From Convolutriloba macropyga (lineage: Eukaryota): DNA of 64,000 nt. Below, piece by piece: positions 11,101-56,290 of the stretch. A model generated the notes under the pieces. It saw only the letters and a list, made by a program, of their open reading frames with translations, was not told the DNA's origin and did no database searches. Numbering within the stretch: the first letter of the stretch is position 1; each line of letters opens with the position of its first letter. The stretch is from assembly GCF_964194025.1 (NCBI RefSeq), contig NC_134472.1, positions 76,632,001 through 76,696,000 on the forward strand, read 5' to 3'. A program made the translations under genes and the position numbers.

Positions 11101-11878
11101 CCTTTAAACTTTCCATATCTTAATTTGAAGCTCCGGGTTTTTCTTTAATTGATGGTTTCCTGCAGATTAACCCTTTTAAAGGAGCATTCATAATTTCTGA
11201 AGGATGCATTTTTGTACATCGGAATTTCCACCGTTCATCAAGCCATTTCATTGCAGTAGTGATGTCTTTTCAATTATTTCACTTCGACACTCGGCAGCTT
11301 GATCTAAAACGTTGCCTTCATTTTTGAGTTCCTTTTTGGCCGAATTGGACGCAACCTGAAACAACACTAAAAATTTCTATGTGCTACAAAATTGTACCAA
11401 AACGATAATCAGCTCATATATCTGATGTTTGTTAAGATTAAAATTAAAAGGCAAGTAGATGACTGAATTGTGGCTGAAAATTTTGGAAAAAGCGATAAAT
11501 TGATTAAAATGAGCTTTTAACGATATTGCGCCTGTTCTTGTCTTTTTCTGCCTTCCGTCATTAATACGTTATAACACCAAACTTTGTTGGGAAATAACTA
11601 ATCCCTTTTCAAGTGCTATAAGAATGACATCGGTCGTTTTAAATGCACGGTTTTTTATTTCAATACAAAAACGGTTACATCCCAATGACACTAACTTCTG
11701 TCTTTAGACCCCTTTACAAAACTGGAATTTTTCTTTTTATCTCAATTTCAGACTCTGAGGGATTTATAATTTGCAATACAACACACATTGGTATGCAGTG
11801 CTCTCGAAGGGTCAAAATTTGTGTTAAAATGTGCATTTGATTTACACTTTGTAAAACCCTGAATTCAGTTTCCTCCGA
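8108..11878. repeat. Three-copy tandem repeat, ~1.25-kb diverged units (8108, 9358, 10615)
   Basis: gtgacctcactttaattaaactttctttcctccttgaaca recurs at ~8119, ~9369 and ~10626; homologous ORF fragments 9169-9420 and 11714-11935. Confidence 0.93.
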
Positions 11879-33900: not shown

Positions 33901-36671
33901 AAATAGCCCCAACTGAAGATAAAATTTAATAAGAAGGGGAGCTGCGCAATGGCGAACCAGTTGCATTTAGTTCCCAACAGAACAAAATTTCAGTCTTTAG
34001 TTTTTCTCGCGTGAAATTTGCTTCGGTATGGAATTGTGTCAACTTAGATAGAAACGAATAAAAAATATATCAGCGATTCGGTAATTGTTATTTGGCTTTC
34101 GGTTATTGTCAAATAATTAGTAGTCCCTTAGTTTAATTTGCAACTAAGTACATATAAAATCTAATCAATAACCGTTAGAAAATCTTCGACGAGAGTTGGT
34201 ACGAGGTGTCATAATCATGTTTCTGATTCAAAAACTACATTCTGGGCAAAATACTGCATTACAATTTGGTAATGAGCAACTGACTGAGTAGAGTAGAGTA
34301 GAGTAACTATACTAGCCTGTGAATTAGGATGATGTCTCTGTTGTTGTTGTTGTTGAGGATTGAACTGCAGGTGTCCCATTGAGTGGGAGAGATTGCTGAT
34401 CAACTGCTGCGCATTAGACTGTTGATGTTGCTGCTGGTACAACCCAGTCAGGTCTACCCCAGTACCGCCATTCAAGCCTAAATTCATCACACCAATTGCT
34501 ATGCACAGCAACGCTCTATCTGAGTCATCTCAACATACAGTATAGTACTAAAAAGCTAGCTACGACAAAAAAAAGCTCTAAAACAAATAAATCAACTGTA
34601 AGTTCCAATGCTTGTCTAGTCACGCGACTTGCCTTCAGCGTTTTAACGTTTTCATGAGGTTTGTATAGATTTCAGTTAGATTTCTAATTGCATCTGAGTT
34701 CTGATGCTAGTATTTACTGTCTAGTCATTATCAAGGTATGCTGCACCAAACTTAATTATTTTTTTCTGTGAGACTGGATTGATATGAAGGTTTTGTTGTT
34801 TAGCAGTCGAAGCGAAGGCTTCTTTAATGATTTACCTTCCCAATTACTTCTACATGAACACATCTAGTCTTAAAGTATACTCTAAATTTACTTGAGTTCA
34901 ACATTTTTTATTAGAGTAAGGAGGAACTAACTATTGGCAAGTGAGCTTTGATGGCTGGGTGCCCCCTGTTGATTAGTAGGACCACCCGCCCCTTGATGGT
35001 GGTGGTGATGATGCGCGTTGGACACATTCTGAGCTAAGGACGCAATGGTAGTGTTGTTAGGCTGGGAAGCACTGTGTGCGTTGGAAGCTAAAGCATTCAA
35101 ATGAAAAGTAATAAAAAGCGGTCATAAAGATTCAACACGAGATCGAAACTAGCGGTCATACATAAAACGAGACCGAGTTAATTGCGAATTCTCAGCTGAA
35201 ATAAAGAGCTAATTAAGCCTTTAGAGGACAAAATTTTGACTTTGCACTGACCTTCTGAAAAGTGGTTGTGACTGGCTGAGTTTATAAGGAAAGAGGGGGC
35301 GGAGCTGCTGGGACTATGTCCAATTGCACTATTGGCAGCAGAGCCAGCCGCACCCGATGACACTGAAACACTACCGCCCAGCTGCCCCAGTGCGGCTGAG
35401 TGGTTCTGGAAATACGGCGCGCCTCCAAGAGTTGCAGCCGCGGCTAAGGGATTGGCAGAGAGCAGGGAACCAGGGCCAGAAGCAGAGTTAGCGGGTGGCA
35501 CACCACCGAACGCCGCCGGGTTAGAGAGCAATAAATTATAGTAATTCAAGGCGCCCGTCGACGCCAGAGGATTGAGTCCGAAGGGAGCGCTGGATGCTGG
35601 CGACCAGGGAACTCCAGCGGGTGAATTTCCATTTACCGAGGGGTGGGCATTGGATGCTGGGCCATTAAAGCCCTTAGGGAAATTGGCATAGTAAGGTGTA
35701 TAGGCACTTTGATGATTGGAATAATATGAGTTGTGATGATTATGTTGATGATACGCATCATAGTGGTCATATGGTCCACCAGCGTACATTGGCTTTCTCC
35801 GTTTACCGGCATCGGCAAACTTGCAAAGAAGTTTGCAGTCTGGGTAGCCTTCTAGAGGTTTATTGTGAACCTGTGCAATCACTTTCTCGCACATTTCCTG
35901 AGTTTCCATCCTCACAAAACCCACCTTCTTAGTATTACCAGATTGATCACGTAAAATTCGGGTTGACACGACAGTTCCTAATTTCTGAAACACTTCTTCC
36001 AGCTTTTTCTCATCAAATCCTTTTGGCAAGTTTGAGATGTAAATATTGGTCAGATCTTGCTCCTGTTGTCGCGCCATTTGTGCGGGTATTCCCTCCTTTT
36101 GTAACTCAATCACAGCGCGCTTCGCTTCCTCTTCAGAAGAGAAATCGACGAAACCATATCCTTTACATACGAAACTTTGCTTATGCATAATAGCTTTGGT
36201 CGACACTATTTGTCCAAACCGTTTACACAAGTCATGCAATTTTCGATCATTAAAGTCAGAGGCCAGTCCACGGATGTACAGATTAGTTTTGCTTAGCTTT
36301 TCTCCCGAATGGTCGTCGCCATTTAATGCAATATCGTCCTGGTCTTCATCGTCTTCGGGGCTCATGAAAGAATCACTATTCATGCTCTCACCAACAGCAG
36401 AATCATCAACCGTTTTGTTTACAGGTTCGTCTTTCATTTCAATCGCTCCATCAGCTTCGTCATTTTCATCTTTTGCCACCTCATCCCCGTTTTTAGCTTC
36501 AATTCCATTCATTTCATACTTGGCGTGATTTTCAACTTCTAATTCGTTCTTAGATTCGACATCCGCACCTTCTAGGCTTTCTCCAATTTTCGACAAACTA
36601 TCTTCTGATGTATTAGCTTCATCTTTGATAACAACTTCCGATTTTTTAGCCTCCGAATTTTCTACAACCAT
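30716..36671 (-). CDS. RBMS1: RBMS/MSSP-family (shep/sup-26-like) RNA-binding protein: 2 RRMs plus low-complexity C-terminus; join(36671-35252, 35087-34932, 34477-34317, 33782-33508, 33175-33048, 30915-30716), 2340 nt, ~779 aa
   Basis: SKTNLYIRGL...IVSTKAI...CKGYGFVDF...AQMARQQEQDLTNIYISNLP...VSTRILRD...VGFVRME...LLCKFAD matches the RBMS signature. Splice phases (1,1,0,2,1) join in frame to TGA at 30716-30718. The symbol is family-level; orthology to a particular vertebrate paralogue is not implied. Confidence 0.93.
32295..32451. other. Assembly gap (157 N) in the last RBMS-like intron
   Basis: Run of N. Confidence 1.
33048..33175 (-). CDS. RBMS1: RBMS-like coding exon 5
   Basis: Acceptor tgtttcag|G, donor CAAG|GTTTGC; reads INFSSAANGNSQHYWAALQQQ...ASQ. 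Confidence 0.82.
33508..33782 (-). CDS. RBMS1: RBMS-like coding exon 4
   Basis: Acceptor tttgatacag|GCT, donor CA|GTTAGT; lies within ORF 33483-33791. Confidence 0.85.
34317..34477 (-). CDS. RBMS1: RBMS-like coding exon 3 (Q-rich)
   Basis: Acceptor aatttag|GC; reads LNGGTGVDLTGLYQQQ...PNSQ; donor is probably CAG|GCTAGT (alternatively a GT 9 nt further on). Confidence 0.78.
34932..35087 (-). CDS. RBMS1: RBMS-like coding exon 2 (contains HHHHHH)
   Basis: Acceptor atgctttag|CT, donor AATA|GTTAGT; reads ASNAHSASQPNN...AHHHHHHQGAGG...LAN. Confidence 0.8.
35252..36671 (-). CDS. RBMS1: RBMS-like coding exon 1 (acidic N-terminus, RRM1, RRM2, start of low-complexity region)
   Basis: 497-aa ORF 35178-36671; donor GAAG|GTCAGT at 35251. 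Confidence 0.95.
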
Positions 36672-36881
36672 GCTTGCATTAAATGAACTTCAATTAATCA
36701 GAATCTATTGAAATTGCAAATTATTGGATATTACTGGATTAACTCAAATAATACGTTGCAGGGTTAATGATTAATTGGTTTTTTGCGAGCAGACGAGACA
36801 GCTAAATATGAGGTGAATAAATAGGATAGCGATATTATACTTGCAGTAGCGTAATATATGCGTATGAGTACCAGAATAATA

Positions 36882-37862: not shown

Positions 37863-40800
37863 ATGGCAAGTGAGGATAACTTGAGGACAAACCCTACCGA
37901 AGAGAAAATTAGAACGAACTCTATCAGTCGACCCGGAGGGAAGAACTACTATCTCTCAATTACAGAGCTTGTGGAGGCTGATGACGACAGGCTCAGGGTG
38001 CTCACGGACGAACTAACCAAGGAATGGCTCATTTGGCTTTTAAAGGACACTGTGGCCCATCTTCGCGAAGCCAAGTCAACCTCATTTATTTAAAATGAAA
38101 TCAACGATAGTCTAACTAAAATAAAGAGTGATCATAGTGCAATTAAAGATATACCGATCCACGCCGAAGCAGTACTTATCCCCCAGTACCAAACGATGAT
38201 TTTGAATATCAACTGAAAATCATCGGGGTGCCTGAAAACATTATCAAGTTCCCAAAATAAAAAAGTTAAAGGAAAAAAGATGACGTGGAACACATTATTT
38301 CAAAATTAGGCAAAAAGTAAGAAATGGCTGACAATAGGAGGCTTGGCAAATACAATGCTGAAAAGTCACGTCCCATCCTGTCCAAACTAAATGGGAGAAA
38401 AGAATATGTCTACTTCATATAATTAAGCAAATTTTATCGCAGCAACGGCATTTTCATCGTTCCTGAGCATTCATCCTCAGACAAAGCCATTGAAAAACGA
38501 ATTTTGTCCAAACGTTTTGAACTAAATCAAGAAGGTATTGACCTCTCCCGTCTTTCAATCTCAAGCTATACCAGGACATGTGGACTGGCTAATTGAGCGT
38601 GGTACTTGGTTAAAATGCAAAATTAGAAGTTAAATTGTTAAGTAGATTAAGGTGAAGAAAAGTTGGTTTATATAGATTAAGATTTAATAGAGTGGTTAGC
38701 TATGATGGTAAGTTTGGTGTTCAATGAATGAATTTAATCCTCGCTTTGGTCGGTACCCAATATCGGTTCTATCATCGTGGTAAATTAACCAAGTTAACAA
38801 AGATATCTGAGTTTCGTTGATTTCGCTCGAAGCCCGAGCTTTGTCTAAGTTTAGAAGCCTTAGATTTAACGATTGAAGCTTTTCCTTTTTGTTGTTGCTG
38901 TGCTGTTATCTGTATTTCTACATACCTCCAGCGTCGTCGCGGTACTCGATTGAAACATCAACCATTGCAAATTGTTTTAGCCAATACATCAATCTTTTTC
39001 TTCTTTTGCTTATTCTAGAGGTATAGCAAATTATTCCTACTATTTTCTTGGTGACTACAATTTTCCGGGAATTGATTGGACAACCTTAACTGCTAAATGC
39101 GCTGTCGAACGACAATTTCTTGATATCGTCAATGACTGTGGTCTAAACCAGTTCTTTAACCTGCCAACACACAGTCGCGGCAACAATTTAGATCTCGTTT
39201 TGTCCACAGTAGACACTCTCTCCTATGCGGTTTTAGATGCCTCTTTTACTGACCACAAAGTTATTTGCTTTCAAGTGGCGTTACATAGTCGCAGCACTTC
39301 TACAATGGTCTATGCTTAATCGTCTTTCAATGCACTCAATTTCAACACAGAACTGACACGATTTTATTGGTTTTTGTTTTCTGATCCGTCGCTTCACCTT
39401 GACTATTATCAATCTTGGTACAATTACTTTTATTCGGCTCTGTCAAAATCTTTGAAAGTTAAGCGCAAAAAACGACTTGACTTGCCATTTTTTTTCTTCT
39501 CATACAATGCATCTATTGTACAAACGTGACACAGTTACCAGAAAACCATCAAAAGCGTTCTCTACTAAATTAAACTTTCAGAGGCTAAAACTGAGGGAAG
39601 ACATTGATACTTCAATTGAACTGGACAAATTCTCCTTGGTTTAACAGATCAACCTGAAAAATACGAAGCATTGTTATCGATTGCTGCGGTCACTGAAATC
39701 AAATTCGAAGTATCCTGCCTCGATGTTTTTCAGCAGCATCAAAGCTGTTACCAGCTTTGAGAAAGCTCAGCTTTTTAAAACGTTTTTCAGTTTGGTTTTC
39801 AAAGCCGGTTCACGCCTTTTACTCAAACTCCAAGCGGATGGTAGCATCCACTTGGAAGTTTTCTCTTTCACAATTGACGACGTGTACATTTTGCTAAGCA
39901 GAATTCCCGACAATTCATCAATGGGCATGGACGAAATTCGGTCTTTTGTACTGGAAGCTTGTGCTCAACAATTGTCACCATTGGTCTTCGAGTTTTTTTG
40001 CGGATCACTAAAACTCAGCAGTGGCCTTCTCAATGGAAAACATCAACCATTACTCCGCTTCACAAATCTGGGTCAACATACGATGTGACAAACTACAGAC
40101 CTATCAGCATCCTAACTAAATTGTCAATTGTTTTTGAGCGTTTAATATTCAACTTAATTTACTCAAGAGTCTGTTCCAAAATAAAACGTGAACAGCACGG
40201 GTTGATGAAACATCGTATCACGGTCACTCAACTCATTTCATTCTTGGACAAAGTTTATGCTGCTAAAGATACAACTCAAGATTGCTTTACTGTATATTTT
40301 GATGTGAAAAAAGCTTTTGACTCAGTTTCGCACGGGTTACTGTTACATAAACTATCTTCATTTGGTTTTGATCACAATCTCCTAATGCTCTTTCAATCAT
40401 ATCTCACTGATCGAAAGCAAGTTGTTAAAGTTGAGGGATGTTTTTCAAGTGAAGCAGTGGTGACGTCAGGAGTTCCTCAAGGTAGCGTGCTGGTTCCACT
40501 TATCTTTATCATTATTTTTAACGATGTTACAGACTCAATACAACATTCTGAATATTTTCTTTATTGCGATGACCTTAAATTGTTTTCTGTTTCTTCAATC
40601 CACAAAATTTGAAATGATATAGACAGCTTATCCACCTGGTCAATTTTAAACGAGTTGAAGTTTCATCCGGACAAGTGTAAAATTTTGTCTTTTAGTCAGC
40701 GCTACAACAATTCTGAGCTCTCTTTGAATGGGTCGCGCTTGAAACAAGTGGATTCAATTGTAGATTTGGGCATCACTGTGAACAGTTTATTGTGTTGGGA

Positions 40801-41529
40801 TAAGCATGTCGAGCTCAGCATTGCAAAGGCTACAAAACTTTCAAAAATTTTTGAAAGCGTAGTGTTCCAATCGGAGTTTATGTTTCTAGAAGAAAACTTT
40901 TATATAAATCGATGGTGTCGTCTATTTTGGAGTACGGTTCGCGTGCGTGGTATCCTTCAATTTTGGCACTGCGAAAGTTGGAAAAGTTTCAACACCGCTG
41001 TCTCAAATGAGTTCTGAATTGTAATAAGTCTTACCTTGTAAGTTTGAAAGTCTTGGACATCTTGCCCGTTTCTTTTCATTTAATAAGAACAGACCTACTC
41101 TTTCTATGGAAATTACTAAATGGTTTTTTGATTCAAATCTTAATGTAATTTTTTTCAACTCGACATCAAGAAACCATCACTTTGGACATTTTTAAATTTC
41201 AAAAAAAGGAAATTTAGGACAGATGGGAAGTTTTCGAATCGATCTCAACGTGCCGCAAATCATCTGATGCGAATGAAGATTATCGACTTTGACATGCCTA
41301 AATGTTAGTTTACGTATGCAATTGACCAGTCTTTACGCACTCGAATTGAATACTTTGACCTGGAAAACTCATGTCCTTTTTATATGAAATGCTGTTGCAC
41401 TTTTTGCAGAACATAGCCCTAATTTAATCACCTTTTGATCTGTAAAAGTTGTTTTCAGCATTCTTTGTACGCTTTTACATTCTTCCGTATCAAGGAATTG
41501 AGTCTTTTACTACTACCACTACTACTAAT
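37863..41529 (+). mobile_element. Degraded CR1/L2-group LINE (ORF1, APE endonuclease, RT, microsatellite tail)
   Basis: ORF1 remnants LKIIGVPE...RLGKYNAEKSRPIL; APE remnants FYIPP, LGDYNFPGIDW, PTHSRGNNLDLVLS, TDHKVI; RT NYRPISIL, YFDVKKAFDSVSH, SGVPQGSVL, LYCDDLKL; (TAC)n tail at 41508-41529; many stops and frameshifts. Confidence 0.92.
38880..41415 (+). pseudogene. LINE ORF2 (endonuclease-reverse transcriptase) pseudogene; longest fragment 39959-40612
   Basis: Frameshifted fragments 39681-40088, 39959-40612 and 40655-41017 carry consecutive RT motifs. Confidence 0.92.
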
Positions 41530-41807: not shown

Positions 41808-42690
41808 TTAGTTCTTCATAATTTTTTCTGCCTCTTCAAGTCCAAATATGTACGCTTCCCGTGCCGTATCATTTGTCAGAAATTGATAAGCCCGGTTGAT
41901 GGTATTGAAGAATTCTTTGTCTCCACTATTATCAGTGTGAGTCAACAGGCTCCTTTTGTGGTAGTGATTCTTGATCTGATCTTTTGAAGCAGAACTTTTT
42001 ACCAACAAAATATCGTATAGCGTTGCAGGTCGGTTCATAATATTTTTGTTCCGAATTTCGGATAAACATTTCTCTGTGGCCTTTTTTTTGGCTTTTTCGT
42101 TTCTAAGAGTACTCTTTTGTCGATCAATGAGAGCATCTTTTTTCGGCATTCGTTGGCCAAATATTAGTTGTAGTGTTCCAGCTGCTCAAGCTCTCGCCTC
42201 AATGGATTATTCATTTTCTCCATATTTTCGATGGTTTTAACCTTCGTAGCAGCTTTTACTTTCAAATTGGCCCACTCTTGCTTCAATACCTCGATGGATT
42301 GCTCCTGTTCAGCATTTCTGGCTGATGCTGCTTTAAATTATCTCGTAACGCCTCACACTGGGCACTCCATTTGACCAAGACTTCTTTTGTTTCCTCTTTG
42401 GTCTTCTTGCTATTGTTATCCATTTCCTGTTGAAGCTCGACGAGGTCTTTTTGAAATTAAGAGTTAGTAGTCTTCAACTTTTCTAACTGCAAGCACTGGT
42501 TTTGCTGTTCCACTTCAGTCTGCAGAGCACGCGACCGAGTATTGGCCTGTGTCATATGTTCTGACGCATATACTTTCCGGGTCCATGACAGACAAGAATC
42601 TACTCCGTACACTCCCAGGGAAATCTCGGAAATAACTTTCCACAATTCTGGCATGCAGCACACATATTCACCAATCTCTGGAATCTAGTT
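41808..42690 (-). pseudogene. Coiled-coil protein with C-terminal DnaJ (J) domain, degraded and intronless
   Basis: TLYDILLVKSSASKDQIKNHYHKRSLLTHTDNSGDKEFFNTINRAYQFLTNDTAREAY is a J-domain with HPD changed to HTD; upstream broken frames read as an E/Q/K-rich coiled coil. Confidence 0.8.
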
Positions 42691-42724
42691 ACACGCTATA
42701 TTGGAAAAAGAACCCTTTTTGCTT

Positions 42725-43020
42725 CTAAAGTTTCTCGATATTTTCAACCTTGAGCTCAATATTTTTCATTTTTCTCCTTTCTTTTTTTGGTCTCGAACTC
42801 GAGACGTTCCCATTTTTTTTGGTCTCGAACTCAAGACAATTTTTTGTGGTCTTGAACTCAAGAGATTGCCCTTCTTCTGTTTTTTTTCTGTCTTGAACTC
42901 AAGAATACTTTTTTGTTCTAGTACTAGAGACGTTTCTTCCTTTTTGAACTTGAACTCAAGACAACTCATTTTTCTTTTTCTTTTTTTTTCTTTTTTTTTA
43001 GTCTCGAACTTGAGACGTTT
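42725..43020. repeat. Array of ~7-8 imperfect 16-bp palindromes GTCTCGAACTCGAGAC separated by T-rich spacers
   Basis: Copies near 42790, 42822, 42849, 42890, 42916, 42948 and 43001. Confidence 0.85.
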
Positions 43021-44815
43021 CTTTCTTTTTTAAACAACTGTCTCTATTAAGGTCTCTTTTTCTTCAATCATTTTCTTTTGTTTTCGGCGTTCATTTATTA
43101 GTTTGTGTAATTGATTAAACATACGTGTTCCCGTTATTGGGTCAAGATTCCGCAATAGTTGTTGCCAAGACGCTCAATTAATAACTAATACTAGGTAAAT
43201 GAACAATTTAGGAAAATTTTTCACAAATTGAAAAATGAGGTAGACTGTTAAGACTGACACAGAATTGTCCTTCTTTTTTAACCAAATGTTTAAGCTTTCG
43301 GTTCTTAAATTCCAAAAAAATTGTTATTTCGTTTGTTTTTAAAATTCTTGTTTGAACTAGTCGTTCCAATGAATAAAATTTTCATGACTGTATTTTCAAT
43401 CCGAATCTTGGAATGCTTCCCAACTGATAGTTCCTTAACAATTATGGCGAATTATTCGAGCAATTTGATCAATTTTACATCTGATGTGGAGAAAAGGCTG
43501 CGATGCTGGTTTTCATCACTTACATTTAAGTTACTATTCATCGACATTTGATATATCTCACGATTAAATTTCTTCAGCGTTTCTCCATATTGTTGAAAGC
43601 TGGCGTCTTCTAATTTGACAACGTTTGGGTAAAGCGGGTTCCATGCAGCGATTATATAATTATGATACAATATTTTTGTATTAGGGTCCATATATCTAAT
43701 AGAAAAAAAATCTGACCCTCTACTAACACAGGAACTTCTTCTGTGCAAAAATGAATTTTAGTTTATGTTGCTACCATCATGGCACATTTCTGAACATATT
43801 ACACAGATCCTGCTCTTTCAACGCGAGTTCCTTTCTAGAAGAGCATTACTGATGGACTAACAATTTTTTTTGATAATTCAATCATTGTCTGAATTCTCTG
43901 TCGTTGAATCTCGCATCGGAGCGTTCGAATTTTCATAAAAAGTCTCCCTCTCTTTGAGATGTTCGAAATAAAAGGTGTCAACAACGCATGAAAGAAACAA
44001 TTACATGATTATTTTAAGATTACCAGCTTTCAGTTCTGAACTTCCTTCGGAGTAGATAACACTTGGAACTCCGGTTGTTTTCACATGCTGTCCACTTAAA
44101 CTAATTGCTTTTTCCTCTGAGATTTCTAAAGCGAAATCTTAATCTTTGTTTTTGTGTAAAATTTTTTGCTGATAAAAGTGGTCTTGTTGTTACCAAAAAA
44201 TTTTGCAGGGTCCTCCCTAGTAAAGTGTTTGATCGTTTGACATGTTTGATTACCTTGATTTTCGAAAACATAGTTTACTAAGTCGTCTTCAAAATGTGTG
44301 GTTCTGATAAAAAACAGTTTTCGGGAAACCTAGGGGATCCTAAAAATTTAATAGGTTTCTTTGTAGCAGCATCCACTAAAATGTTCCGATGAAATTTTTT
44401 GCATTGATTACCAATTTTCCAATAAATTCTTTCTCCTGTTGGTGAAACCCACTCTACAGGCTCTGCATACATAGCGCCATCGCGCTTTTTTTTGCCATGA
44501 AGCTTTGACTATGCTCTTCGACATAAGTGGTTTCGCTGACCTGTCGTAAAATTGTTTCAGTTACCGACCTGTTGACTTTAAATGTCCTATCTCCAAAACC
44601 TGGTATGGTTTTTTTGGAGATAGGACCTTTAAATTTTGCCAATACCTGGCAATATTTTTGTTCTGCCAAATGTTCCTACAAACTCCCCAATTTAAAGGGT
44701 TTATTGATTTTAGTAGTCTTGATTTTTCTGTGAGAAAAACAACGTCGTCATATACTTTGCTTTTTTAAAGTGCCGGCACTATATATGACGCTTCAAACAT
44801 TCAAAATATTAGTTT

Positions 44816-45015
44816 NNNNNNNNNNNNNNNNNNNNNNNNNNNNNNNNNNNNNNNNNNNNNNNNNNNNNNNNNNNNNNNNNNNNNNNNNNNNNNNNNNNNN
44901 NNNNNNNNNNNNNNNNNNNNNNNNNNNNNNNNNNNNNNNNNNNNNNNNNNNNNNNNNNNNNNNNNNNNNNNNNNNNNNNNNNNNNNNNNNNNNNNNNNNN
45001 NNNNNNNNNNNNNNN
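44816..45015. other. Assembly gap (200 N)
   Basis: Run of N. Confidence 1.
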
Positions 45016-45159
45016 GAGCATCATTACCAGGTTTTAGGAAAAAAAATATATAAAGCGGGAAAACGTAACCTAAGCTAATAACCTAGCTAATACTATATCT
45101 AATGCTATAGCTAATACTACAGTTATGGTTAAACTATAAAACTAGATCACCCCATCCAA

Positions 45160-45757
45160 TTCTTAATTTGCCATCAATATTTTCACCTTTAAACACGTCA
45201 ATAACAAAAAAATATGTGGGTTTTTTTTCCGAACATCCTTACCGATTCTAATAAAATCTCTATAACTGAGTTTCTCCTTCATTATTAATGTCCATGGTAA
45301 AATTGTTTTCAAGTACCTTACTTCTTTGTTTGAATAATATGAATAGATTACAGTTTTATCTAACTTTTTGCCTAATAGTAGAAAATAAGTTCTGACTAAG
45401 ATAGAATATGTTACAATTATTACGTCTTCCTCTACAGAAATACCGTTTTTTTATAGGTAATTTAGGAGAAAAATTATCAAATATCGTTAGATTCTATTGT
45501 GTTTTATCTAGATCTTCTGGTTTAACCAAGTTATTCATATCTAATATGAATAGAGTCTTTGCACCAACGTTGGCAATATACTCATATTGAGCTCCAGTTG
45601 GACCTATTATATATAAATTGTCAATATCTAAATTGTTTGAGATGAGGTTCTTCAATAGATATGGCCACATTCACTTGGACCTGATATCATACATCTAAAA
45701 ATAAGTGGTACTGGTGGTTTTAAGAGTTTGTTTGAGATAGGATATAAATTATGACAT
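45160..45757 (-). pseudogene. A32/FtsK-like packaging ATPase type 1, copy a
   Basis: PPVPLIFRCMISGPSECG (Walker A region), IFDN (Walker B position), YFCRGRRNNCNIFYLSQN, VR.NCNLFILFKQ; paralogous to 47440-47985. Confidence 0.8.
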
Positions 45758-45771
45758 CTGTGGGTCATTGT

Positions 45772-46370
45772 CTAGCCGCTTCTGCCGCTTCTGTTTCTCT
45801 TTAGTATTAACTTAAAGCCTATTCCATATATAATCTTCTCTAAATCTTTTATAAATCCAAATAGATTTTTTATTTTAATCATCAAATACTTATGACTTAT
45901 TATTGCACCTCGATAATCACTTTTTAATTGACTATTTCTTTCTCTTTGATCATCTCTAACAAAACAGCTTTCACATTTATCGTCAGTGCTTGTTAGTAAT
46001 TTATACATTAAAAGATTGGGATGAAAATGATCTATATATTTGATAGTTTTACCAATAAAAATTTTTTGGTATAAGAGAACTAATAATACCATTCTACCAT
46101 AGTTTATTTATCTAACAATGGCATCATTAGTTATTGCCCCACCAGCATTCTTTGAAACCATAAACTCTATCTATAAATGAGAGTGATATTTGTTTATATG
46201 ATTTTATTCTCTACTAATTAAAATATTAATATTATTATTTACTGTTTTCATTGTTGCTAGAATATTTGGTTCATAACTTATTATCTTGGCATTGCTTATG
46301 TCATTGTTATACATATATTGTTTTTCTAAGTCAAAGTCGAATTTTGTAGTATAAATATTCAGCTTTATTT
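45772..46370 (-). pseudogene. Polinton-type major capsid protein, N-terminal half
   Basis: NNNINILISRE...IEF.V...GKTIKYIDHFHPNLLMYKLLTS...IKIKNLFGFIKDLEKIIYGIGFKLILKRN; the 'LFGF..D..KII.G..L.L.RN' motif is typical of Polinton/adintovirus MCP; truncated at ~45772. Confidence 0.75.
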
Positions 46371-46519
46371 TAGTTATTGTAATAGCTATAGTTATACCTG
46401 AGTCTATAGATAAAGGTGTAACCATAACTATAGCTAAGACTATGGCTAAGACAATAACAATAGCTATAACTATGGTTAAAGCAGTAACTATATCTATTGC
46501 TCTGGTGACAGACAACCTA

Positions 46520-47268
46520 ATCATACATGAACAAAAAATATACATAAAGCTTTAATTGAAACTAACGACTAGCATTTTTCCAACTTTAGAATGGTGAAGT
46601 CAACACAAAGATTTAACTTAATACGCGCCTATGCTTAATACAGTAAAATTGGGGTTAATTAGCATATCAGTTTGTAATTCGGTGTTTAATGTGAACAGAA
46701 GGGACAATCAATTTTTATATAGAGTAGATAATGAATTAAATGTAAATTCTACTTGTAAAGTTTCACTTGATTGTGACGTAATTATTTTTATAGTACCTGG
46801 AGCAGATGGATCAGCTGAAAAAGCAGAAATAATAAAAAAGAAACTGAGGGTAATGTTATAATTCAAGGAGATAAAAATACAATGAAATGTATGATGGAAA
46901 TAAAACGAGGTGCAATTAGTTTTGATGTAGACAACTCAAAAGCATCATTACCAGGATTTAGGAAAAAGTTATATAAAGAGGGAAAATGTACAATTCAAAA
47001 ACTTTTTGATAATATGGGTTTTAATACTATTAACATTCACTGTAAAGTGGCATCTGGCGTTAGTGATAATAGTAATGATAAGACAAACTATATTCTTTAA
47101 ACCTAATGGGGCCACCGGGTTACATGATAAACAATATACCTACTAATATGTAAGATTAAATTTTAACTAAAGAAGGAATAGAATATGTAGCGTTTCATAT
47201 TAGAGATGAGCAAGAAAGACAAACTGACTTTAATGGCGATGTATTGAGATTTAATTACATCTGACGTA
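46520..47268 (+). pseudogene. Polinton-type minor capsid (penton-like) protein
   Basis: GLISISVCNSVFNV...NTINIHCKVASGV.DN...PPGYMIN..PTN...IEYVAFHIRDEQERQTDFNGDVL.F.LHL; a second fragment lies at 45016-45066. Confidence 0.78.
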
Positions 47269-47439
47269 GTCAGCTGGTGGAAGTCCCCTCTAGTTTAAGT
47301 AGTAGCTAATGCTATAGCTAATACTATAGCTTAAACTATAGCTAATACCAAAGCTAATACTCTAGCTAATACTATAGCTAATGCTATAGCTAATACTACA
47401 GTTATGGTTCAACTATAAAACTACATCAACCCTTCCAAT

Positions 47440-48228
47440 TCTTAATTTGCCATCAATATTTTCACCTTTAAACACATCAATAATAATAAAAATATGTGGG
47501 TTTTTTCCGAACATCCTTACCCATTCTAATAAAATCTCTATAACTGAGTTCTCCTTCATTAATAATGTCATGGTAAATTGTTTCAAGTACCTTACCTCTT
47601 TGTTTGAATAATATGAATAGATTACAGTTTTCTCTAACTTTTTGACTATAAGTCGAAAATATGTTACAATTTTTACGCCTTCCTCTACAGAAATACCGAT
47701 TCATTATAGGTAATTTAGGAGAAATATCATCAAACATCGTTAGATTCTATTGTGTTTTATCTAGATCTTCCGGTTTAACCAACTCATTCATAGCTAATAT
47801 GAATAGAATCTTTGCACCACCTTTGGACCGATTATATATAAATTGTCAATATCTATATTGTTTAGGAAGAGGTTCTTCAATAGATATGGCCACCTTCATT
47901 TGGACCTGATATCATACATCTAAAAATGTGTGGTACTTGTGGTTTTAAAATTTTGTTTCAGATAAGATATAAATTATGACATCTGTGGGTCTTTGTCTAG
48001 CCACTTCATGAGCTCGATGATCCGCGAAGTAGTTTTGCTGATCAAATATGTTATATGTGAAGGAGCTCCGCTCGTCGATGGGTCTCCAAACAGCCACTTC
48101 GAGGTTGGGGAAGCAAGGGCGGAGCCCCTTCCCTGATTTTCTGTGACATTTATGATAATATCTAGGAAAACTACGAAGCAGGTTGTTGAACCACGAGCGG
48201 AGCCCCCTTCTCTGACTGTCCATGACAT
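47440..48228 (-). pseudogene. A32/FtsK-like packaging ATPase type 1, copy b (possible N-terminal extension 47974-48228)
   Basis: FRCMISGPNEGG; MFDD (Walker B); YFCRGRRKNCN; KVRENCNLFILFKQ (ORF 47477-47737). Confidence 0.82.
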
Positions 48229-48261
48229 TATTTTTATATTTAACTATACATCTTCGTAATA

Positions 48262-48685
48262 CTAAATGATTTAATGCATATTAAATACAAAATCCTATAC
48301 TCGTTAGATAAATCATGTATAAACAAAAAGCTCTTCAGTTAGTCTCACTATCTTGCTGTATAATATCATCGGAACCTATAATAGTATAATTTTGTAAAAA
48401 ATATTGGTGGTTTTTCTCTGATCTGCCTATCAAAATAATAAATTCCTCCTAAACTATCTTTTGATAAAACTAAAACGACTAAAACGCAAAGTGTGCGCTC
48501 AGTTGGATTTAAATAACAATTATATTATGATCTATATTCTTAATGGATTTTGGCTCTTCATCTCGCATTATTACTTCTATTGGATTTATACTTATCTGTT
48601 CTCATTTGTTCAGTAGTTTAATATTACTCATAGCTTGATTCTCAGTAGTATATTTGAAAAAACTTCTTCAAAAGTTAAAACATTC
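48262..48685 (-). pseudogene. Adenain-like (C5) cysteine protease remnant, missing from the ORF track
   Basis: Manual translation across frameshifts: MSNIKL...VIMRDE...NPTE/THF..VVL...GIYYFD...KPP...IQQDSETN*RAFCLYMIYL, matching adenain THW...YFDSFG..PP...Q...CG.FCL, with the catalytic Cys position now TGA (~48335). Confidence 0.72.
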
Positions 48686-48813
48686 AATTTTAATTATAAA
48701 AATGTCTCGTTTTAAAATTATTTTTTTTTCAATTCTAGTTCTTGTGAGTATAATATTTCCAAAAATCGTCCTATAATAAGTATAAGGTTTTCAGAAATAC
48801 CTTTGGGGGGTTG

Positions 48814-50261
48814 ATGGAAAATTAATTAAAACAGTTCAAGACTGAAGAGTCGATTTTACATGCTTCTTTTTATGTTTCTATGGGATTGGGAAAAACATAT
48901 TTTGTGAAGAGGAATTTAGAGTAAAATGCGAGTGAAGATCCACGAAGCGGCATCGCCGATAAAGATAAAAACGCCTTGGGTCTTGTTACCCAAACTTCAA
49001 CTGAAGATAAAGATTCTCGAAACGCTTTTGCCGATAAAGATAAAAAACAACTACACCCAAAGATGGGGATCCACAAAACGGCTTCCCCGATCAGGGAACC
49101 TCCTTTGCAGATAAAGATAAATATAAAACTACAACTACAACAAAAATTAAAACCTATATCAAAGTTGATACTAATTTATTTTGTAAGGATGCGGATGGAT
49201 ATAGTATTGGTGATATTGATGATTTATTAACAGGTGATACAGAACAATTTGAAGATAAATTTTTCGTTTTAGATGATATGGGTAACAAGTTAAAGAAAAG
49301 GGATAACACAATTCTTCACAATTGGTATAACTGAAAATATAAAGTTGGTTGTAATGTGTCATAAATCTGCTCAGAAAGACAATATGGATAAGGCTAATAC
49401 AGATACTGTTCATAATACTTGTTACAATGATCAGGCAATCTTAAATAATAATAAAGTTGCCTTTCAATGTAAACATGACTTTCATGAAATATGAAAAGGA
49501 TATGGATATGATATGACAAAATTTTTTCAAAAAGAAGAAACATATATTGTAGTAGATAACGATAGGTAAAAATTATGATTCAGAAGTGGTTAGTTTTAAT
49601 GTAAAAATTTCAAAAGGTTAATTTTACTATAAAAGAAGATGAATGAGATAAATAAATAATATTTTTGAGAATCAGTTGATTGAAAACAGATGAAGACAAA
49701 GAATTCATTGGTAAATATAATTATAAGTTCTACATAGTAGAGTATTTGAAGTTTAAAGGTATTACTCCAAAATTTATTGAAATTAATAAATTGTATGAAT
49801 TTTTTCATACTACCACAGTAAATGACTCCTTGTGGTGGTTTATATTTTATATATTCTCTGGTGATCGGGAAGAGAAAGAAATAGAGCAATTAGCTAATAA
49901 ACTGGTGTAGTTTGTGATCGAGTTGCTAGAAATGCTCGTGGTTGGAGTGAAGAGAAAATTGGGGATAAAAATTTAGCTCAAGTGAAAGATCACCTGATCA
50001 GCAAGATAAAAAATGAATAAAAGATCCGGCTAAAAATGAGGAAACTGAGTATAAACAAGTTATTTAAAATAATGAAGTTGATACTAGTACTACCGCTAGT
50101 CAGACACCATCTGTGGATGATGCTAAACCACGCAGTTACAATCAAAGTTATCAATTTGAAGAATGTACAGATAAAAGAAATGGACTATTAAGGAAAAAAT
50201 TCTTTATTAACTTTTTTGAATGGTTAAAGAAATTTTTTTGCAAAGTAGTAAGTAAAAATAT
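48814..50261 (+). pseudogene. Second, distinct P-loop ATPase (A32-like) with C-terminal extension, copy a
   Basis: HASFYVSMGLGKTYFVK (Walker A), FFVLDDMG (Walker B), QFFTIG.TENIKLVVMCHK; many stops. Confidence 0.7.
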
Positions 50262-50481
50262 TCTATATTCTTAATGGTCTCTTCATCTCGCAATATTACT
50301 TCTATTGGTTTTATACTTATCTGTTCTCATTTGTTCAGTAGTTTATTATTACTCAAAGCTTGATTCTCAGTAGTATATGTGAAAAAAACTTTTTTTTTCA
50401 ATTCTAGTTCTTGTGAGTATAATATTTCCAAAATCGTACTATAATAAGTAAAAGGTCTTCAAAAATTACTTTGGGGGGTTG

Positions 50482-51931
50482 ATGGAAAATTAATTAAAAC
50501 AGTTCAAGACTGAAGAGTCGATTTTACATGCTTCTTTTTATGTTTCTATGGGATTGGGAAAAACATATTTTGTGAAGAGGAATTTAGAGTAAAATCCGAG
50601 TGAAGATCCACGAAGCGGCATCGCCGATAAAGATAGAAACGCCTTGGGTCTTGTTACCCAAACTTCAACTGAAGATAAAGATTCTCGAAACGCTTTTGCC
50701 GATAAAGATAAAAAACAACTACACCCAAAGATGGGGATCCACAAAACGGCTTCCCCGATCAGGGAACCTCCTTTGCAGATAAACACAAATATAAAACTAC
50801 AATTACAACAAAAATTAAAACCTATATCAAAGTTGATATTAATTTATTTTGTAAGGATGTGGATGGATATAGTATTGGTGATATTGATGATTTATTAACA
50901 GGTGATACAGAACAATTTGAAGATAAATTTTTCGTTTCAGATGATATGGGTAACAAGTTAAAGAAAAGGGATAACACAATTCTTCACAATTGATATAACC
51001 GAAAATATAAAGCTGGTTGTAATGTGTCATAAATCTGCTCAGAAAGACAATATGGATAAGGCTAATACAGATACTGTTTATAATACTTGTTACAATGATC
51101 AGGCAATCTTAAATAATAATAAAGTTGCCTTTCAATGTAAACATGACTTTCATGAAATATGAAAAGGATATGGATATGATATGACAAAATTTTTTCAAAA
51201 AGAAGAAACATATATTGTAGTAGATAAAGATAGGTAAAAAATTATGATTCAGAAGTGGTTAGTTTTAATGTAAAAATTTCAAAAGCTTAATTTAACTATA
51301 AAAGATGATGAACGAGATAAATAAATAATATTTTTGAGAATCAGTTGATTGAAAACAGATGAAGACAAAGAATTCATTGGTAAATATAATTATAAGTTCT
51401 ACATAGTAGAGTATTTGAAGTTTAAAGGTATTACTCCAAAATTTATTGAAATTAATAAATTGTATGAATTTTTTCATACTACCACAGTAAATGACTCCTT
51501 GTGGTGGTTTATATTTTATATATTGTCTGGTGATCGGGAAGAGAAAGAAATAGAGCAATTAGCTAATACAACTGGTGTAGTTTGTGATCGAGTTGCTAGG
51601 AATGCTCGTGGTTGGAGTGAAGAGGAAATTGGGGATAAAAATTTAGCTCAAGTGAAAGATCACCTGATCAGCAAGATAAAAAATGAATAAAAGGTCGGGC
51701 TAAAGATGGGGAAACTGAGTATAAACAAGTTATTTAAAATAATGAAGTTGATACTAGTACTACCGCTAGTCAGACACCATCTGTGGATGATGCTAAACCA
51801 CCCAGTTACAATCAAAGTTATCAATTTGAAGAATGTACAGATAAAAGAAATGGACTATTAAGGAAAAAATTCTTTATTAACATTTTTGAATGGTTAAAGA
51901 AATTTTTTTGCAAAGCAGTAAGTAAAAATAT
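50482..51931 (+). pseudogene. Second ATPase, copy b (tandem duplication 48532-50261 / 50262-51931)
   Basis: Near-identical ORF pairs 48976/50644 and 49680/51349, offset ~1668; the copies share inactivating lesions. Confidence 0.72.
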
Positions 51932-52804
51932 AAATCCAAAAATTGTTCGTACATAGATTGACAAATATAAAAAAGATAGTTAAAGTAAATACTAAATTGA
52001 TTTTAATAGATAAAAGAAAAAAAATTAAACACTCTTGCCTATTCAAAACTAGGAGGTTTAATAGAACAAAGACAACATGTAAATAAATAATTGAAATTGT
52101 GTCCCATTATTAAATGTAGAAATGTTTAGATTTTGATAAAGAGTTGAAAAATTATTTTACACTAAAGGGGCATCATAATGGTTTCCATATGATCTTAATA
52201 ACAGAGGGTAATGGATGTAATTATAAACAGTATAGCAGTGTTTACGTTGAGATTATTTGTTATAATAAAAAGACTATTCATAAAACTCCGCCTGTAGCTT
52301 TCCAAGCGACTTTAATAAACAGGAGCCCTATCACGGCACTCATTAACAAGTGATAAAATCAAACATCAAAGCTGTTTGGGATGTGCAAGCCACTGACTGA
52401 GTCCGTTAACAGATCAAGCAACCATAAGCAGATTAGTGAAGGGGCCTCTGGCCTTGGTGGTACCCCAACCTACCTCACAGATGGTAAAAAATGTATTAAG
52501 TTTTATATCACTAAAGCTATACTATTAACTGATAAAAACAAAAGTGCTTGAACACAATGTTCAGCAGAAATCATTACCTGTAAAAACTGTCTTTCTCTCA
52601 TTTCTAGAGGTAATAATACAACTCAGGTTAAATAGATCTATATATGCTGCTTGTGCAAGGTTTATAAGCATATATTTTACTTTAGATTTAAAGCACAAAA
52701 ATGCATATTATGTGTTTTTTTTTACAGAGATATAGATTTGCTTATACTTGAAACCAGTTCAGAGACTATGCTCTCAAATATAATATAAAATTATTAACTC
52801 TACC

Positions 52805-53219
52805 CAAGTAGTGGGGAAATTTTGCCCTGTGCGTCAGAGCGAGATCTTTTACAACAACATCATTTTTAGCTATGACCCTGATTTTAACTAAAGTTAGAGC
52901 CTTAACTCAAGTTAGAGCCTTAGTCTTAACTCGAGTTAAAGCCTCAGTCTTTTTACACTAATTCGAGTTAAAACCTTAACCCGAGTCAGAATTTTCACTT
53001 CGAAGCATCTAAGATTTTTTTAAAATTGAGTAATGACTTAAAATAAAATTTTTAATTTGGTGGTCAGCTGAGCTGTAAATGAAAATCAAAAATATGTTGA
53101 GGCGAGTAGTAAATCAAAATCAAAACTTTTGGCGGTGGGCTGAAGGCCTGACTTTGCGCAAAATGAAAATTTTGAAAAAACCCTAATTCTGCGCACAGGG
53201 CACTTTTTTCCGCTGCTTG
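52805..53219. mobile_element. MITE with ~31-bp imperfect TIRs and internal gagttaRagcctt repeats
   Basis: caagtagtggggaaattttgccctgtgcg / cgcacagggcacttttttccgctgcttg; flanks ctctacc / ctctact resemble a TSD. Confidence 0.72.
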
Positions 53220-53495
53220 CTCTACTGTGTCTCAATGTGTTGCTTTCTTGAGCTTTTTCGATCGCTACGGCAAAACATCGAAAAATGATACGGTCAAGGT
53301 TTTTTTAAATGTTCATGCTGTTGTTAAGTTGAGATCACATGCAGCTCTGCTGGAAAAGAACTGAACTTCATATGAGAAATAAAAACTGAACAACTTTCGA
53401 TGTTGAGATCAAGTTGTTTACATGTCTTTGTTCTATTAGACCTTCTCATCAGGGAGTTTTTTTTTGGATTTGACTTAGAAGGCCAAAATTTTCAG

Positions 53496-53703
53496 GTTAA
53501 CTTTGTCATTCTCCTTTGACATTGTTCCTGGGTCATCTTACGAGTGGACTGTCACCTCAGCCAGTCAGGGATCGAACCCACTCCAGAGAAACTACACCTT
53601 CTTCAGCACCAATCCACCCATCACTCCAATTCCATTGGTTCAAGCTGCATCCACTCTGGAGACATACAACACTTTTGTCCTCACAATTGGGAGTGAACTC
53701 TTC
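53496..53703 (+). CDS. Candidate exon encoding a fibronectin type III-like segment
   Basis: Acceptor aattttcag|, donor TTC|GTAAGT; open frame LTLSFSFDIVPGSSYEWTVTSASQG...STNPP fits the FN3 '(L/I).PG..Y...V' motif; GC content is above the flanks. Confidence 0.6.
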
Positions 53704-53979
53704 GTAAGTTGGAAACATTTCATCTGTTTTTCCTGTTTGCGTAAAAATGGAAAACAGACAATATTTAGTGAAAAACAATAGTTTGACTAGTCCAGAGTGT
53801 ATTGGTGCATTTAGACTGGCCCAGTACTGATCTTGACTGGCAGTTCAGTCCGGGTACTCATAGCCATTTGATAGGTTAAATAACCATCGGGGTAGCGATA
53901 GCATTCTGGACGTAGATCATTAGCAACCCACTACAGTGCTGACAGCAGCAACAGTAACACAAATTTTGGGCTAAGACGA

Positions 53980-54994
53980 CCCAGGTTTTGGTCCAGACCC
54001 AAATTGAGCTATGATCAGACCCAATCGACCGCACATCCCTGTGTTCCAAGACCGAAATTACAGGGTCTGGAAAGCGGTTCGAGCGCACAATAGTCTGGAC
54101 CATGGTCTGATTTCGGTCTGATCAGAGGTCAATTCGGTCTGGAAGGTCTGATCACAGTCTTTATAGTCTAGACCATGGTCTCGGTTTGGTCTGATCAGAG
54201 GTCAATTCGGTTTGGAAGGCCTGATTTCGAGTGCATTATTTTTTCAATTTTTTTTGTTTTTTTTTATTGAGGGATGTTGGCTCTGTCAAAAGGCAACAAA
54301 AAAGCAGCGTTCCGATCAGAGACTCATCTAAAGTAAGATGACTCTGATCAGAAACAAGGAGTCCAGCTGATAGCAAATGCCGGTCCCCTCAAGAGGAAAT
54401 TTTGATTAACTGAAGACCACGACGTTTCTTGTGGAAAGCTGTCTAAGTTCATCCATTGAGTCACAAATATGAACTAAGGAGTATGGTAAACAAATTTTTT
54501 TTCTCAACAGTTAGGTTTCGTTTTCATTAGCAATATTTTCATAATTGGCTTTTCCTTAGATGATTTTAGTTGTGCAAACACCAGTTTTTATGAAATAACA
54601 TATTATAGCAAAATTAAGGGATTTGTTCATAATTAAAATCTTTCTCTGATCAGACTTTTTTGAGCGCACTTGTGTCTGATCATAGTCTGATTAAGGTATG
54701 GGCATAGGTCTGAAATTGAGTCTGGACCATGGTCTGAAGATGGCCTGATCATAGTCTGTTTATAGTCTGGACAATGGTCTGAATTTGGGTCTGATCATAA
54801 GCGCACTATAGTCTGGACAGTTGTCTGGGTTCGGTCTGATCAAAGGACATTTTGGTCTGGAAAGTCTGATCAGAGATCATTTTGGTCTGGAAGGTCTGGT
54901 CAGAGGTAAATTCGGTCTGGAAAGTCTGATCAGAGGTCATTTCAGTCTGCATAGTCTGATCATAGCTCAATTTGGGTCTGGACCTAAACCTGGG
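53980..54994. mobile_element. CMC/EnSpm-like non-autonomous element with ~30-bp subterminal repeats (GTCTGATCAGA); 2-bp TSD GA
   Basis: ga|cccaggttttggtccagacccaaattgagct ... agctcaatttgggtctggacctaaacctggg|ga. Confidence 0.8.
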
Positions 54995-55970
54995 GACTCA
55001 AATCAAAAAATTTGAGACGAGCCATTCCTTTGAAACTGGGTCTATGGATTTACAACATCTTCACAAATATATTTAGGCAACTCATTTTCAGAATTTTTTT
55101 TTCACTTTATCTTGCCCTTTTGTTTTTCAAGCTCCCAAGATGAAATAAAACTTTGCAAGGTCTTCTCTCACAACTGTTTGGATATTTGAATTCTGATAAA
55201 AGCTAGATTGAGACTTTATTGGTTTTCACTTGCTGTTTTGTTACAGTTCAACGGATTTGAATTGCATTGGAGAATTAATTCTCTTCTTTACAAGAAAAGC
55301 TTGTTTACAATGTCTTTTTAATCACATTTTTTATCACAATTAGAAGCAATTTTTTTTATCACAATTATAAGCATTTTTATCACACTGGAGTAATGAAAGA
55401 AGAGGAAAGAGAGTTTTTCTGATAATTTGTTTTTTTTTCAAATTCAATGATATGTGAGAAAAGCTTCATAACTTTCGGTTAAGAGAAAACGTATTCGATG
55501 GCATTGACGTACGTTACAGAAATAAAAGCGGCCGTTCAGATTTTGTCGATTTCGCTAGTTACCTGTTTTGTCACCTGATGATGACTTTCCTCAAAACTGA
55601 CAGTTCTCATTGAATAGCTACCGAGGCTTAACTCAATTTTTTAAACAATTTTCTGCTTATAAAGCAGTTTTGACGGCTCTAATATCACTTGATTTTGTGG
55701 GTGTGAGCTGTTTCTTTGTCATCTGGTTTCTTGTCCCCAAAAAAATGTGAGTTTTTTTTACAAAAACGTTTAAGCAGAAAATAGTTCTTGAATTCAGTTT
55801 CTAGATTTTGTTTATCGTGTTTTGCTGAAATTAGGAAGATCTAATTTTAAATCTTTTTTCTGCTTTTCTTTTGTTCATCTTCACTTACTGAGTCTCTTTA
55901 AACACAAGTCTCATCGATTCTCTGTTTAGGCATAACAGTATTATTTCTTGTAAATTAGTTTGTTATTGTT

Positions 55971-56290
55971 TAGTTGCTCTTAGATGAAGTTTGCAGCAAT
56001 TATATTAGTTCTGTTGGACTCTTTTCTGCATTTTTCGCTTGACAGTTTTACGTCTGACTCATTTGATTTTTCGTCTGCAAAAACGGGATAAACAGGTAGC
56101 ACAAAGTGGGTATTAAGTTCTCTTAGAGCCTTTCAACCCACTAGTGTCCAAATATGCTCTTCACAGCAACTGTTTTGGAGACTTCTACTTTTGGTGTGAA
56201 GTGCGGTTCTTAGAGGTTGATCCCACCATATCAGCTACTCCACCCTTAATTCAGCCCCAGCCCAATCCGCAGACCTGCACATCGTTCAGG
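55971..56290 (+). mobile_element. HINE copy E (same subfamily as 27356-27783, opposite strand)
   Basis: tagttgctcttagatgaagtttgcagcaattatattagt...aaaacgggataaacaggtagc...actgttttggagactt...gcggttcttagaggttga matches the reverse complement of ~27548-27785. Confidence 0.72.

Follow-up and report, generated by a model that had tools for sequence, protein, structure and literature searches.

Mavericks/Polintons and adintoviruses are the closest described systems to the element considered here, a decayed locus in a 64,000-nucleotide stretch of the Convolutriloba macropyga genome (contig NC_134472.1, positions 76,632,001 to 76,696,000; hereafter the window). According to the portions available of this and the other sources cited below, animal Mavericks/Polintons carry genes for pPolB, an rve integrase, an ATPase, a protease, and major and minor capsid proteins (PMC8097293). 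They have terminal inverted repeats (TIRs) with (AGT)2//(ACT)2 ends and 6-bp target duplications, and their copies are mostly degraded (PMC8097293). Those of vertebrates possess a single ATPase, have the protease in a gene of its own, and number 8 copies per genome at the median (PMC8097293). Adintoviruses encode the same core, with PolB, integrase, adenain, FtsK-type ATPase, hexon and penton (PMC8502044). Polintoviricetes groups 1 and 2 have the module of major (MCP) and minor (mCP) capsid proteins plus A32-like ATPase, and group 1 also has protease, pPolB and RVE (bioRxiv 10.64898/2026.06.19.733378). The Polinton protease belongs to the Ulp1 family (PMC11161782). Some coral, hydrozoan and bivalve A32 genes lie outside the main Maverick groups (bioRxiv 10.64898/2026.06.19.733378), and repeat counts for one published acoel genome put Mavericks at 4.5% of it (PMC6451197). 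The family described below shares pPolB, integrase, ATPase, major capsid gene, termini and decay with these systems, and it has putative counterparts of their protease and minor capsid genes.

The window contains the decayed, rearranged right half of an old Polinton/Maverick, which ends near 53217. Its family has an ordinary Polinton frame carrying unusual genes. Two features go beyond the first-pass annotation of this DNA: the putative protease and a canonical A32-like ATPase (ATPase1) share a single frame, and a second ATPase (ATPase2) has a hydrophobic N-terminal helix, a predicted membrane anchor. On balance, we favour a reading in which ATPase2 is a membrane-anchored DNA pump or tether that works beside the protease-fused ATPase1.

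Gene content of the window copy and its family

Genes of the window copy were located by tblastn, using natural open frames from another family copy (loci L056/L057) as queries. Matches occur in the order ATPase1, MCP, mCP, ATPase1, protease, ATPase2 and second ATPase2. The features of the element are as follows, in window coordinates.

45017..45067, plus strand: duplicated mCP fragment, 88% identical to 46941-46990 (self-blast)
45137..45726, minus strand: extra broken ATPase1 (canonical A32-like); tblastn in two frames, 47-50% identity, E 7e-30
45778..46338, minus strand: MCP (double jelly-roll), N-terminal part only; 58% identical to the family MCP, E 1e-49, residues 2-187 of 414
46540..47252, plus strand: putative mCP (penton); four frameshifted tblastn pieces, 38-72% identical to the family protein
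47437..47951, minus strand: A32-like domain of ATPase1 with Gln sensor, forming the C-terminal half of the fusion; four tblastn pieces, E 1e-27; broken, with a frameshift in the Walker A region
47952..48259, minus strand: protease-ATPase1 linker; a natural 120-aa frame in the 86-88% identical duplicate on contig C9
48260..48655, minus strand: putative cysteine protease domain of Ulp1/adenain type, forming the N-terminal half of the fusion, broken; tblastn 34% identity, E 3e-13
48700..50020, plus strand: ATPase2 (TM-ATPase, for transmembrane), broken, ends approximate; six-frame reading, with three tblastn pieces at 48778-49566
50262..51931, no strand assigned: tandem duplicate of 48531-50261 (protease start and ATPase2), 93.9% identical (self-blast)
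50470-51597: second ATPase2 (tblastn)
52484..52637, plus strand: remnant of a small Cys-rich (zinc-finger-like) gene downstream of ATPase2; DNA match to L094:7767-7915, the site matched by the family zinc-finger (ZnF) protein
52805..53219, no strand assigned: decayed right terminus with a fold-back, in which an inner AGTAGTGGG stretch pairs with the end at ~53217

The region 45016-51931 is AT-rich (28-33% GC), its longest open frame is at most 115 aa, and stops or frameshifts interrupt every gene. ATPase2 can still be read as a hydrophobic N-terminal remnant, a degenerate Walker A, an insert, an LDDMG Walker B and an MCHK sensor. The extra ATPase1 lies within 45068-45782, which is an 85% copy of 47347-48007 (self-blast). 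At the right terminus, the last 410 bases of the element fold back (z-score -2.23; 2 of 100 shuffles were equally good), and the same layout of inner stretch and paired end is found in L089, L090 and L095. Tandem repeats of 12 nt (AGCTAATACTAT-like) occur within the element at 45061-45137, 46408-46484 and 47292-47416, on either side of the mCP gene.

The first-pass annotation had proposed this gene order for 45016-51931, with a duplicate of the last block, and the tblastn and self-blast alignments bear it out. Its central claim, two unlike packaging-type ATPases in a Polinton-type morphogenesis module, is upheld by Pox_A32 matches, a fold search and an identity of 22% between the two. The module is not the full one that it described, because the MCP is represented only by its N-terminal 45% and the remainder is absent at the locus. 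The region it delimited does belong to the element, but the element continues past 51931 to ~53217. It had also noted that pPolB and integrase are missing. This holds for the 64-kb window, where tblastn found no match to either, but the lineage has both in other copies. TIRs and 6-bp target duplications, which it had suggested seeking with these two genes across the genome, were found there as well.

The genome searched comprises 1.18 Gb. ATPase2 gave 2,909 and ATPase1 4,852 first-look candidates, which are not copy numbers; the 150 scored in each search are 83-100% and 94-100% identical, respectively. The family is very large and partly young. Four of eight copies examined have both AGTAGT-type TIRs and 6-bp target duplications, and these span 15-18.6 kb; one more has TIRs but no matching duplication, and the other three gave no clear picture. 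In family copies, pPolB matches PF03175 (E 4e-22) and includes an endonuclease VII domain, and the rve integrase scores E 7e-06 (26.6 bits, under the curated cut-off of 32.6). Of the matches that the first-pass annotation proposed to look for, double jelly-roll and Pox_A32 are confirmed, the former by a PF21738 match of the family MCP (E 1e-24, 87.7 bits against a cut-off of 27), but Peptidase_C5 and a single jelly-roll are not. The family mCP has an ESM Atlas score of 0.98 to an unnamed cluster that is 62% viral, most commonly Preplasmiviricota. It matched no Pfam family and no PDB sequence, and its penton role is putative.

The window copy belongs to an older and rarer subfamily, with 59 DNA matches and 21 matches to its ATPase2 tail, whose ATPase2 is only 26-46% identical to that of the main family. 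Members with pPolB and integrase are found at L029/L030/L089, L093 and L095/L096, including pPolB remnants at L030 and L096 and integrase remnants that are 63-74% identical. One member has TIRs that are 79% identical over ~400 nt and lie ~17.7 kb apart. Because subfamily copies keep remnants of both genes, their absence reflects loss in the window copy only, and a lineage without pPolB or integrase is ruled out.

ATPase2 in this family and in distant Polintons

ATPase2 begins with a hydrophobic N-terminal helix, followed by Walker A and a repeat insert of variable length; the LDDMG Walker B and GRH come next, then a sensor strand with MCHK and a tail of helices. Hydropathy in a 19-residue window reaches 3.0 at the N-terminal helix. 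The Walker A Lys, the Walker B Asp-Asp, GRH and a downstream Arg vary little or not at all. The A32/FtsK-HerA motif places Gln at the sensor, after the GRH strand. ATPase2 has His at this position, so it is filed here as A32-like rather than as a canonical packaging ATPase. Its structure model (mean predicted local distance difference test, pLDDT, 65; core ~80-92) adopts the A32/FtsK-HerA fold. The best match is B204 of Sulfolobus turreted icosahedral virus (STIV; Z 14.5, root-mean-square deviation 3.0, 168 residues aligned), followed by VirB4 (Z 13.9), HerA (13.2), FtsK (12.3) and TcpA (12.3); Zot is also matched, and the Z scores of these proteins span 11-14.5. Viral packaging ATPases matched in BFVD are those of mavirus, the FtsK-like protein of a Drosophila-associated adintovirus, and adenovirus IVa2.

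STIV is an inner-membrane virus. The fold match to its packaging ATPase would suit a scheme in which ATPase2 is the true packaging motor of an inner-membrane particle and the protease-fused ATPase1 is a repurposed one. Pox_A32 scores point the same way, with E 7e-07 for the family ATPase2 but no better than E 5e-05 for ATPase1, which matches in 8 of the 27 members. However, ATPase1 still has Gln, the canonical residue, at its sensor, and its conservation is no lower (dN/dS, the ratio of nonsynonymous to synonymous substitution rates, 0.20-0.35 in five copies). Furthermore, an outside locus discussed below has an unfused canonical A32 gene directly behind its capsid gene in addition to ATPase2. 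We regard this scheme as very improbable.

ATPase2 adjoins the protease back to back in 19 of 20 loci, some of which are neighbours or duplicates of one another. The same layout is also present within individual elements delimited by TIRs and target duplications. These observations refute an assembly error as the source of the two ATPases, and likewise an origin from two elements that are nested or lie side by side. The rearranged window piece and the adjoining N run might have suggested such an explanation, which is now hardly credible. For the ATPase2 core, dN/dS is 0.29-0.34 (19 of 24 copies, dS >0.1), compared with 0.34-0.44 for the protease (15 copies) and 0.16-0.29 for the capsid protein (two copies); all values are pairwise against one reference and come from open-frame copies only. 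The similarity of the ATPase2 values to those of the protease and ATPase1 indicates that selection has kept ATPase2 alongside ATPase1. The two ATPase profiles align with an hhalign probability of 97%. A recent duplication of ATPase1 within the lineage was rejected as the origin of ATPase2, given their low identity and the grouping of ATPase2 with outside sequences.

Outside this genome, a 38% identical protein (P0265) led to 21 matches, mostly on short ENA, JGI and Logan contigs. They include a gene model labelled Mactra antiquata by NCBI (a bivalve), with two chromosomal copies. Three large protein searches were dominated by close family relatives, and figures from them apply among the matches listed, with 35, 262 and 183 lower-ranked ones beyond. 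In a scan of the clade (n=22), a hydrophobic 19-mer of at least 2.29 precedes Walker A in 20 sequences, and the other two are without an N-terminus. The sensor residue is His in all 22 and Gln in both canonical ATPases. In a tree of 29 rows, 21 TM-ATPases fall on one side of a branch with support of 90/92, which is under the tool's mark for strong support, and the tree has eight outside rows and one long branch. Scans of viral contigs gave no relative in four of five cases and a weak partial match in the fifth (L108; 23%, E 9e-6). PDB sequence searches returned repeat-driven or chance matches, or none.

The sole outside locus with gene context is L073, a 9.1-kb contig from the second of two metagenome scans, the first of which yielded no relative. 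Its gene order is a putative MCP, a canonical A32, four small genes, a Cys-rich gene, a TM-ATPase and a convergent pPolB. The putative MCP is a weak match to Capsid_N (E 0.002); scores are firmer for the canonical A32 (E 7e-13), the TM-ATPase (E 2e-07) and pPolB (E 5e-16). Thus, the layout with two ATPases extends beyond this host. The TM-ATPase is 28% identical to the family ATPase2 over 218 aa (E 2e-18), and the Cys-rich open reading frames (ORFs) beside ATPase2 in the two lineages match weakly (32% over 56 aa, E 0.004). In contrast, the capsid protein and first ATPase of L073 have no blastp match to their family counterparts at E 1, and the two first ATPases align with an hhalign probability of 44%. 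Because the TM-ATPase matches across lineages while the capsid protein and first ATPase do not, it looks like an accessory gene common to distant Polintons rather than a local duplicate of ATPase1.

Such mobile behaviour, together with a Cys-rich partner in both lineages, would also fit an old packaging-ATPase paralogue recruited to a task outside DNA transport, for example to remodel membranes, to assist exit, or to interfere with the host or competing elements. An added helical region at the C-terminus of the main-family protein, part of it mildly hydrophobic, is in keeping with this. The closest folds of ATPase2 are DNA translocases, which argues for transport, although VirB4, EccC and Zot, also among the matches, do not pump DNA in this manner. 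Recruitment of this sort is possible but unlikely.

Two further observations concern ATPase2-like genes. The extra C-terminal region of the main-family tail (L056:6556-7143) is ~200 aa long, is absent from outside homologues, and comprises two long predicted helices, one of them the mildly hydrophobic one; it is possibly membrane-active. Beside the duplicate of the window element on C9, L015:361-9689 was read by eye as an inverted pair of pPolB-like remnants, and the piece tested has no Pfam match. Beside each remnant lie an ATPase2-like gene that is divergent (hhalign 99.3%) and a Cys-rich ORF, with no capsid match in the 10 kb. This locus is possibly a different or capsid-less element that carries a TM-ATPase.

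The protease-ATPase1 fusion and possible roles of the two ATPases

The first-pass annotation treated the protease and ATPase1 as separate genes. In this family they are one gene, a single frame of ~480-510 aa with an Asn/Asp-rich linker. Nine of 16 distinct natural frames that bear the protease continue into Walker A. Among the best 150 ATPase1 matches, 89 lie in frames of at least 460 aa, and about a dozen of these 89 (counted by eye) have a stop inside the match. For the window subfamily, 14 loci were scanned; one copy, the C9 duplicate, has a natural frame that joins the last helix of the protease to the ATPase1 leader. The family protease displays a His67/Asp83/Gln107/Cys114 pattern, and a search of a phage collection found no match to it. 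In many copies (for example, L006, L055 and L056), the linker and the ATPase2 insert contain short repeats that code for DQ, NQ, DN and DK runs. The runs vary greatly in length among copies, and long frames are often still open.

We infer that the fusion is made as a precursor whose protease probably frees both domains by cleavage within the low-complexity linker. The freed ATPase1 would then act as the usual capsid-filling motor. ATPase2 would be an accessory ring motor that acts on the linear genome at a host membrane, as its fold, conserved catalytic motifs and predicted anchor suggest. It could move the genome or tie assembly to the nuclear or endoplasmic reticulum membrane. FtsK and TcpA are known to be anchored in membranes, and ATPase2 may be likened to translocases of this type by general analogy.

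Several considerations weigh against this reading. A pumping or tethering role is likely but is a prediction from sequence and structure model. The predicted membrane helix, which was recognized by a hydropathy scan and in the structure model, could alternatively be a cleaved signal, and the change from Gln to His at the sensor, combined with the long repeat spacing, could signify a motor that works differently or less well. In the five ATPase2 copies that are closest, dN/dS is 0.70, and the single reference and open-frame sampling affect all of these ratios. Gene context outside this genome comes from one contig, and the tree has the weaknesses described above. For the fusion, 7 of the 16 protease frames end before Walker A. 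Database relatives that were listed do support the fusion, with both motifs in 64 of 120 cases and frames that reach GRH in 31 of 120, but the search was limited to 265-844 aa, which favours fusions. The protease matches Pfam C48 (Ulp1) weakly (E 0.09) and Peptidase_C5 not at all, and the fusion model (pLDDT 36.8) is too poor for a fold search, which leaves the protease call to its motifs.

The altered sensor and the repeat-filled spacing of 74-134 residues between Walker A and Walker B are also what might be seen if ATPase2 did no pumping itself. Instead, it could be a regulatory or anchoring partner of ATPase1, either as a subunit of a mixed ring or as a loader that fixes the packaging motor to a membrane. 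A canonical ATPase is always present alongside ATPase2 in the capsid-coding elements seen. However, the catalytic motifs of ATPase2 are kept across sequences that are only 20-45% identical. The partner ATPases of the two lineages are barely alike by hhalign, which is awkward for a specific binding partner, and the ATPase2-like gene of L015 lies near pPolB remnants where no capsid match was found. A partnership of this kind is rather unlikely.

A bolder extension of the membrane-anchored pump or tether is that animal Polintons share an accessory gene, mobile and so far undescribed, whose product is a membrane-anchored motor of the FtsK/HerA type that drives the viral genome through a host membrane. 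If this speculative and rather long-odds proposal were true, then these elements could leave the nucleus or pass between cells without a capsid. That might help to account for the thousands of copies reached in this genome, where the packaging ATPase would in addition be produced as a precursor fused to the protease.

Surroundings of the window copy and comparison with known systems

An N run at 44816-45015 borders the element piece, and 42000-44815, to the left of the run, has no match to the other family loci compared. Positions 45789-55998, including flanking DNA, are duplicated on contig C9 at 86-93% identity. Since the duplicate includes the flank, it is a segmental duplication rather than a second insertion; the tandem repeat at 50262..51931 is absent from it. 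Decayed, duplicated with its flank and duplicated internally, the window copy is presumably inert, an ordinary fossil of a known kind of element.

Other features of the window lie to the left of the element. A 503-aa open frame at 35178-36689 (minus strand) has two RNA-recognition motifs (RRM_1, E 2e-28) and is a host gene or retrocopy. A broken reverse transcriptase at 39645-41017 (plus strand; RVT_1, E 8e-24) is a retroelement remnant. Three tandem copies of a ~1.26-kb unit occupy ~8100-11900, and at 1-2750 short G-rich repeats form a nested duplication of 1.45 kb. Elsewhere, a few kb from a Polinton copy, L025:874-2590 contains broken frames that resemble by eye a retroviral or errantivirus-type envelope gene.

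No description of a second or transmembrane Polinton ATPase or of a protease-ATPase fusion was found in the literature, although figure maps, supplements, Repbase and GenBank annotations could hold one. The available portions of PMC8502044, PMC11131425 and bioRxiv 10.64898/2026.10.13.758929 mention neither, and nor do those on the Polintoviricetes groups (bioRxiv 10.64898/2026.06.19.733378), in contrast with the family here. The text labels of the adintovirus maps include one FtsK per panel, and a second ATPase in the drawn maps is possible (PMC8502044, Suppl. Fig. S2). For adintoviruses, the portion available names PLA2X, GasderminX and Cupiennin as membrane-active accessories, and no ATPase anchored in a membrane is among them (PMC8502044). 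The second ATPase, with its predicted membrane anchor, is apparently undescribed.

According to the available part of a Maverick paper, no particles of these elements have been seen. For the step by which animal Polintons leave the nucleus and spread, a second motor that is conserved, has a predicted anchor and is present in Polintons with unrelated capsids offers a single concrete candidate. The fusion, for which no counterpart was found, would couple packaging to maturation. In addition, two paralogous clades may be mixed in the A32 trees on which the classification of these viruses draws.

STIV B204, HerA, FtsK, TcpA, VirB4 and Zot have the same ATPase fold as ATPase2. The FtsK/HerA translocases listed are prokaryotic systems with 10-18% identity to ATPase2, and the shared fold is not proof of function. 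Compared with vertebrate Mavericks, as far as the available text describes them (PMC8097293), the family in this genome is set apart by its second ATPase, by the fusion of protease and ATPase, and by candidate copies that number in the thousands.

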